Source: a phage
Length of the DNA: 672 nt
Sequence record: OP745095.1
Reading direction: 5' to 3' (one strand)
The notes beneath the pieces were generated by a model, which worked only from the letters and a program-made list of their open reading frames with translations, was not told where the DNA came from and did not search any database. Below are positions 1 to 672 of the stretch, in pieces. The translations under genes and the position numbers were made by a program. The first letter of the stretch is position 1, and each line of letters begins with the position of its first letter.

Positions 1-672
1 ATGGCGCTGCCGAACGGCAGCCAGATTTTTATTGAACAGACCCGCGCGGCGACCGAAATTGAAGCGACCGCGGTGAGCAACGCGGAAAACCCGGTGGCGA
101 CCGTGGCGAGCACCACCGGCATTGTGAAAGGCGATTATGTGCTGGTGCTGGAAAGCGTGTGGGCGGCGTTTAAAAACCGCGTGATGCGCGTGAAAGAAGT
201 GACCCTGGATGCGAGCATTACCCTGGAAGGCGATAAAAACACCAGCACCGCGGATCTGAACAAATTTCCGGCGGGCGGCGCGAGCACCTTTGTGAAAATT
301 GAAAGCTGGATTGAAATTCCGTGCGTGAGCGATATTGCGAAAAGCGGCGGCGAACAGCAGTTTTATACCAAACAGTGCCTGAGCGATGATCGCGAAAAAC
401 AGATTCCGACCTTTAAAAGCGCGACCAGCATTGCGTATACCTTTGATTTTGATTATAGCAACCCGATTACCCAGCTGCTGATTGGCTATGATGAAGATGG
501 CAAAACCCGCGCGATGCGCATGTTTGTGCCGAAAGCGAGCTATCCGATTCGCACCTTTAGCGGCACCCCGAGCTTTGATGATATTCCGAACACCGTGATG
601 AACGAAGATGAAACCACCATTCTGACCATTAGCCTGGATGGCAAATATACCCATATGAAAGAATTTGTGGCG
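1..672 (+). CDS. Partial CDS (open at the 3' end): putative phage major tail tube protein, lambda gpV-like, N-terminal tube-forming domain
   Basis: Seen in sequence: ATG at 1-3 and frame +1 open through 672 (224 codons, no stop), while frame +2 has TGA at 74-76 and frame +3 has TGA at 33-35. Translation begins MALPNGSQIFIEQTRAATEIEATAVSNAENPVATVASTTGIVKGDYVLVLESVWAAFKNRVMRVKEVTLD and ends TILTISLDGKYTHMKEFVA. Alternating hydrophobic/polar runs (IFIEQ, YVLVLESVW, STFVKIESWIEI, SIAYTFDFDY, TILTISLDG) suggest a beta-sandwich fold. From memory of lambda gpV: SIAYTFDFDYSNPITQLLIGY resembles [20 protein letters not shown], and DGKTRAMRMFVPKASYPIRTFSGTPS resembles [24 protein letters not shown]. The family call is motif-level recollection, not a computed alignment. 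Confidence 0.5.
   Translation, partial: MALPNGSQIFIEQTRAATEIEATAVSNAENPVATVASTTGIVKGDYVLVLESVWAAFKNRVMRVKEVTLDASITLEGDKNTSTADLNKFPAGGASTFVKIESWIEIPCVSDIAKSGGEQQFYTKQCLSDDREKQIPTFKSATSIAYTFDFDYSNPITQLLIGYDEDGKTRAMRMFVPKASYPIRTFSGTPSFDDIPNTVMNEDETTILTISLDGKYTHMKEFVA

Follow-up and report, generated by a model that had tools for sequence, protein, structure and literature searches.

A 672-nucleotide stretch with one codon per amino acid reads as a reverse translation of the major tail protein of Escherichia phage vB_EcoS_ESCO41

Among the closest described systems to the protein treated here are two tail tube proteins, gp41 of phage T1 and gp39 of phage NBD2. T1 gp41 combines a beta-sandwich core, which enters a 24-stranded hexameric barrel, with a beta-hairpin and an outer Ig-like domain, and about 34 gp41 rings are stacked around the tape measure protein in the T1 tail, with disulfides joining successive rings (PMC11945409); 9L0F is among the depositions that this structure paper cites (PMC11945409). 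Six disulfides between Cys108 and Cys126 link each pair of neighbouring NBD2 gp39 rings and increase thermal stability, as documented by cryo-EM, Raman spectroscopy, the C108S and C126S mutants and thermal-shift assays (PMC13576161). The disulfide-cross-linked branch to which gp39 belongs makes up about 14% of the Pfam family PF08813 (PMC13576161).

The window, by which we mean the whole stretch of 672 nucleotides that was analysed, is open throughout frame +1 from an ATG start to a final alanine codon, 224 codons in all, and contains no stop. Its translation is identical over all 224 residues (100%) to the major tail protein of Escherichia phage vB_EcoS_ESCO41 (YP_009789945.1), and the second-best protein match, in phage CJ19, is 99.6% identical. 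The elements of the window that concern the encoded protein are the following.

1..672, + strand: artificial coding sequence for the 224-residue ESCO41 major tail protein (codon table; 224/224 residues identical; 672/672 bases regenerated)
154..657, + strand: region encoding PF08813 Phage_tail_3 (tail tube protein), residues 52-219 (Pfam match)
322..324, + strand: codon of Cys108, the residue that corresponds to Cys108 of NBD2 gp39 and aligns with a cysteine of the T1 chain 9l0f
376..378, + strand: codon of Cys126, the residue that corresponds to Cys126 of NBD2 gp39 (beta-hairpin arm) and aligns with a T1 cysteine

What the window encodes is a siphovirus tail tube protein of the T1 type. Against PF08813 it scores 161.8 bits (gathering cut-off 24.2, E = 1.4e-47), covering positions 1-163 of the 165 in the profile, and over residues 1-220 it matches both PHROG 584, 'major tail protein' (E = 4e-76), and the solved structures 9l0f_G ('Putative major tail protein', E = 1.4e-68) and 9jlf_E ('Tail tube protein', E = 3.7e-68); 10lj_C and 9lbn_L are more distant solved relatives. 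In a global alignment with NBD2 gp39 (YP_009284663.1), likewise a member of PF08813, 181 of 224 residues are identical and no gaps are needed, the 19% divergence falling mostly in the N-terminal and outer-domain region and in the last five residues. T1 gp41, with 222 residues as against 224, aligns with short gaps in the outer-domain region. The window protein contains exactly two cysteines, Cys108 and Cys126, which occupy the positions of the two gp39 cysteines that mark the disulfide-cross-linked branch of PF08813, and both also align with cysteines in T1 gp41 (9l0f) and in 9jlf_E. Given the gap-free identity with gp39 and the alignment of both cysteines with those of gp39 and T1, we infer a disulfide-cross-linked stack of hexamers of the same kind for the ESCO41 protein, by analogy with relatives that are 81% and about 57% identical to it. 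By homology, it would assemble into hexameric rings around the tape measure protein, these rings would stack into a non-contractile tail tube, and neighbouring rings would be cross-linked by Cys108-Cys126 disulfide bonds.

The window itself carries no gene context, and the gene order was examined at the native ESCO41 locus, where the tail tube gene is preceded by a tail terminator gene (PF13554) and followed by genes for a Phage_TAC_4 protein and for the tape measure protein (TMP_2). The native gene occupies positions 18169-18843 of NC_047820.1 (KY619305.1), the genome of a phage of the Drexlerviridae, genus Nouzillyvirus, that was isolated from chicken caecal content in France. Several observations on annotation accompany this locus. 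A gene for 105 amino acids just downstream of the tail tube gene (6750-7067 of the extracted ESCO41 locus, L001) is annotated as 'tail length tape measure protein'; it more likely encodes a tail assembly chaperone, because its product matches PF08748, Phage_TAC_4. It is followed by an unannotated gap of 347 nucleotides (L001 7068-7414) before the real tape measure gene, which may contain the frameshift extension that such chaperones usually have; gene and gap together span 18918-19582 of NC_047820.1. The head and tail structural module is also interspersed with genes for an HNH endonuclease (L001 655-1137) and an endonuclease VII (L001 10718-11227). Elsewhere, proteins 95-99% identical to the tail tube protein are labelled 'tail fiber(s) protein' in several GenBank records (P817, vB_EcoM-p111, P818, XT34, 50EP and BUCT-XGG-1), and the homologue in GaoY1-9D is labelled 'hypothetical protein'. 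In view of the matches to PF08813, PHROG 584 and the solved tail tube structures, these labels are probably annotation errors.

At the level of DNA the window departs from the native gene. The sequence-only reading had held that every amino acid is written with a single codon across the 224 codons, and our tabulation of all of them returned the same 20 codons that it had listed, one per amino acid: GCG, TGC, GAT, GAA, TTT, GGC, CAT, ATT, AAA, CTG, ATG, AAC, CCG, CAG, CGC, AGC, ACC, GTG, TGG and TAT. No amino acid takes two codons in frame +1; a second synonymous codon there was what the reading itself had named as fatal to its case. Of the degenerate amino acids, 17 occur two or more times, and the pattern holds for every one of them; histidine, with one occurrence, is uninformative, and methionine and tryptophan have no synonymous codons. 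If codons were drawn at the frequencies of the native ESCO41 gene, the probability of one codon for every amino acid would be about 1e-59. For comparison we took 102 real genes, each 150 codons long or longer, comprising ordinary E. coli K-12 genes, genes for ribosomal proteins, EF-Tu and EF-G, and ESCO41 structural genes. In these, at most 24% of the degenerate amino acids were written with a single codon and each gene used at least 39 distinct codons, ribosomal protein genes included. The uniformity of codon usage in the window is confirmed to lie far beyond chance.

The native ESCO41 gene, which encodes the identical protein, uses 47 distinct codons and is 79.5% identical to the window in DNA, differing at 138 of 672 bases. 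The mismatches fall at codon positions 1, 2 and 3 in the numbers 13, 13 and 112, the changes at the first two positions all arising from 13 serine codons in which TCN became AGC. A protein conserved at 100% while third positions are changed in 112 of 224 codons (50%), and always toward one table, is not what evolution would yield. The two sequences have 107 of 224 codons in common, and the longest exact run that they share is 20 bases. The native gene ends in TAA and has an AAGGAG ribosome-binding site upstream of its ATG, neither of which is present in the window, and directly 3' of the native TAA (L001 about 6676-6705) lies a GC-rich hairpin with a T-run, TGCAAAGGGGGCTATTGCCCCCCTTTTTCT, which is likewise absent. 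Only one contig of the assembly collection, the ESCO41 genome, has the exact protein on record, and there it is written in native codons. The claims that the nucleotide sequence of the source organism is not represented here, and that protein searches would find matches with other underlying codons, are both borne out by this comparison.

To identify the table behind the window, we counted codons in annotated genes from three stretches of the E. coli K-12 MG1655 genome and in the ESCO41 structural module, and compared the window codon with the top codon of each gene set for 18 amino acids.

94 ordinary E. coli K-12 genes (29,015 codons): window codon is the top codon in 18 of 18
29 genes for ribosomal proteins, rpoA, tufA and fusA: window codon is the top codon in 8 of 18
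15 ESCO41 genes: window codon is the top codon in 7 of 18

The probability that an arbitrary one-codon table would coincide with the top-codon table of ordinary E. coli genes is 2.9e-9. The agreement for arginine is less diagnostic than that for the other amino acids, because its margin in the E. coli sample is narrow (CGC 693 against CGT 654); the other margins are comfortable. Against the full agreement with genome-wide E. coli usage, the phage's own codon preference is ruled out as the source of the table by its 7 of 18, and the preference of highly expressed E. coli genes by its 8 of 18: where the window has GAT, TTT, TAT, CAT, ATT, CGC, GGC and GTG, the ribosomal and elongation-factor genes prefer GAC, TTC, TAC, CAC, ATC, CGT, GGT and GTT. 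Further, when the ESCO41 protein was back-translated with the top-codon table derived independently from the 94 E. coli K-12 genes, the result was the window itself, at 672 of 672 bases.

The window thus almost certainly came about when the ESCO41 tail tube protein was reverse-translated by computer, each residue being given its commonest E. coli K-12 codon, and the base-for-base regeneration upholds the earlier statement that this DNA was generated from a protein sequence. A fixed look-up table would have exchanged each residue for the codon most frequent genome-wide in E. coli K-12, and the stop codon is missing because the protein record carries none. Reverse translation by most frequent codon with an E. 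coli table likewise fixes a single codon for each amino acid and adds no stop. Output of this kind is presumably given by EMBOSS backtranseq with an E. coli table and by 'Reverse Translate' of the Sequence Manipulation Suite (SMS), and the sequence by itself points to no particular program or usage table. We found nothing that contradicts this reverse-translation reading.

Several features that might catch the eye in the DNA can be set beside the native gene in the same way.

1..672, - strand: in-register antisense frame free of stops, not a gene (0 stops in the window against 5 in the native gene)
6..31, + strand: terminator-like hairpin (6-21), GCTGCCGAACGGCAGC, followed by a T-rich run (site scan, folding energy)
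63-81, 96-114 and 270-288: weak family of 19-nucleotide direct repeats, the only one found (79% identity in the window)

No stop interrupts the antisense frame anywhere in the window, since TTA, CTA and TCA are missing from the codon set; an ORF finder could take it for an overlapping gene. The first 40 bases of the window have a folding energy of -11.3 kcal/mol, against -1.9 for those of the native gene, and the single terminator-like site found compares with an average of 1.1 in shuffled sequence. No promoter-like site was found in the window by the site scan. The direct repeats arise because similar peptides rich in alanine, threonine, serine and glycine are written with single codons, and at the same positions of the native gene the identity drops to 47-53%. 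The window has a GC3 of 0.638, the native gene one of 0.589. Codon bias, GC3 and GC skew, the repeats and hairpins, motifs that resemble promoters or RBSs, and the antisense ORF all stem from the look-up table. The sequence-only reading had regarded apparent repeats and motifs as uninformative, and with the antisense ORF, the 5' hairpin and the 19-nucleotide repeats absent or much weaker in the native gene we come to the same judgement.

A megablast search with the window came back empty from 50,697 phage records, 5,426 complete E. coli genomes and 72,556 plasmids. Neither of two 30-mers of the window, 556-585 and 1-30, which differ from the native gene at 13 and 8 of their 30 bases respectively, occurred in the contig collections for viruses, genomes (596 Gb) and metagenomes. 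The native 30-mer from the same slot, used as a positive control, did match the 50,800-bp ESCO41 contig in IMG/VR. Sensitive blastn with a word size of 11 recovered the native gene together with relatives, the identities being about 77-80%, since most first and second codon positions are set by the protein and 107 codons coincide. At E <= 10 this search placed two records in the band of at least 99% identity, and these would have to be short matches of fewer than 28 bases, since megablast, which needs an exact word of 28 bases, found nothing in the same collection. The expectation that BLASTN would find no natural match is accordingly correct for exact and near-exact matches, for which neither megablast nor the 30-mers turned up a natural genome in the collections searched, and incorrect for sensitive blastn, which recovers the native gene and its relatives.

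Two other origins of the window have to be weighed against reverse translation in a computer. The first is that the window was physically synthesised as an E. coli expression gene with a single codon for each amino acid, for instance as a source of tail-tube nanotubes, and that this construct was then sequenced or deposited. The codon table is indeed an E. coli table, the sequence alone cannot separate a design that stayed in the computer from one that was synthesised, and tail tube proteins of the PF08813 family, NBD2 gp39 and MED16 gp13, have been made recombinantly as self-assembling nanotubes (PMC13576161); the published gp39 and gp13 constructs, however, are phage genes cloned into pET vectors (PMC13576161). 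The window has none of the elements of a construct, lacking a stop codon, a tag, vector sequence, cloning sites and flanking DNA, and nothing in the plasmid collection matches it by megablast. Nor does it look optimised for expression: its codons are those of highly expressed genes for only 8 of 18 amino acids, and the hairpin of -11.3 kcal/mol lies a few bases past the start codon. Strong hairpins near the start codon are normally avoided in expression-oriented design. We consider a synthesised gene very unlikely; if it were one, the hairpin near its 5' end and its stop-free antisense frame would be relevant to expression, but the sequence would remain a back-translation. The second, that the window is a natural gene of such extreme bias that it uses a single codon per amino acid, has nothing in its favour beyond the uniform codon usage itself, and is so improbable as to be excluded for practical purposes by the 1e-59 calculated above, the survey of 102 genes, the 47 codons of the known natural gene for the identical protein and the absence of exact 30-mers from about 600 Gb of genomes and from the viral and metagenome collections.

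As a reverse translation of the ESCO41 protein, the window is an artefact of data preparation, and it matters for quality control only: findings that rest on its nucleotide features are to be discarded. Only findings drawn from the protein sequence can stand, and these concern a protein that is already known from RefSeq and belongs to a family with solved structures and a published mechanism.
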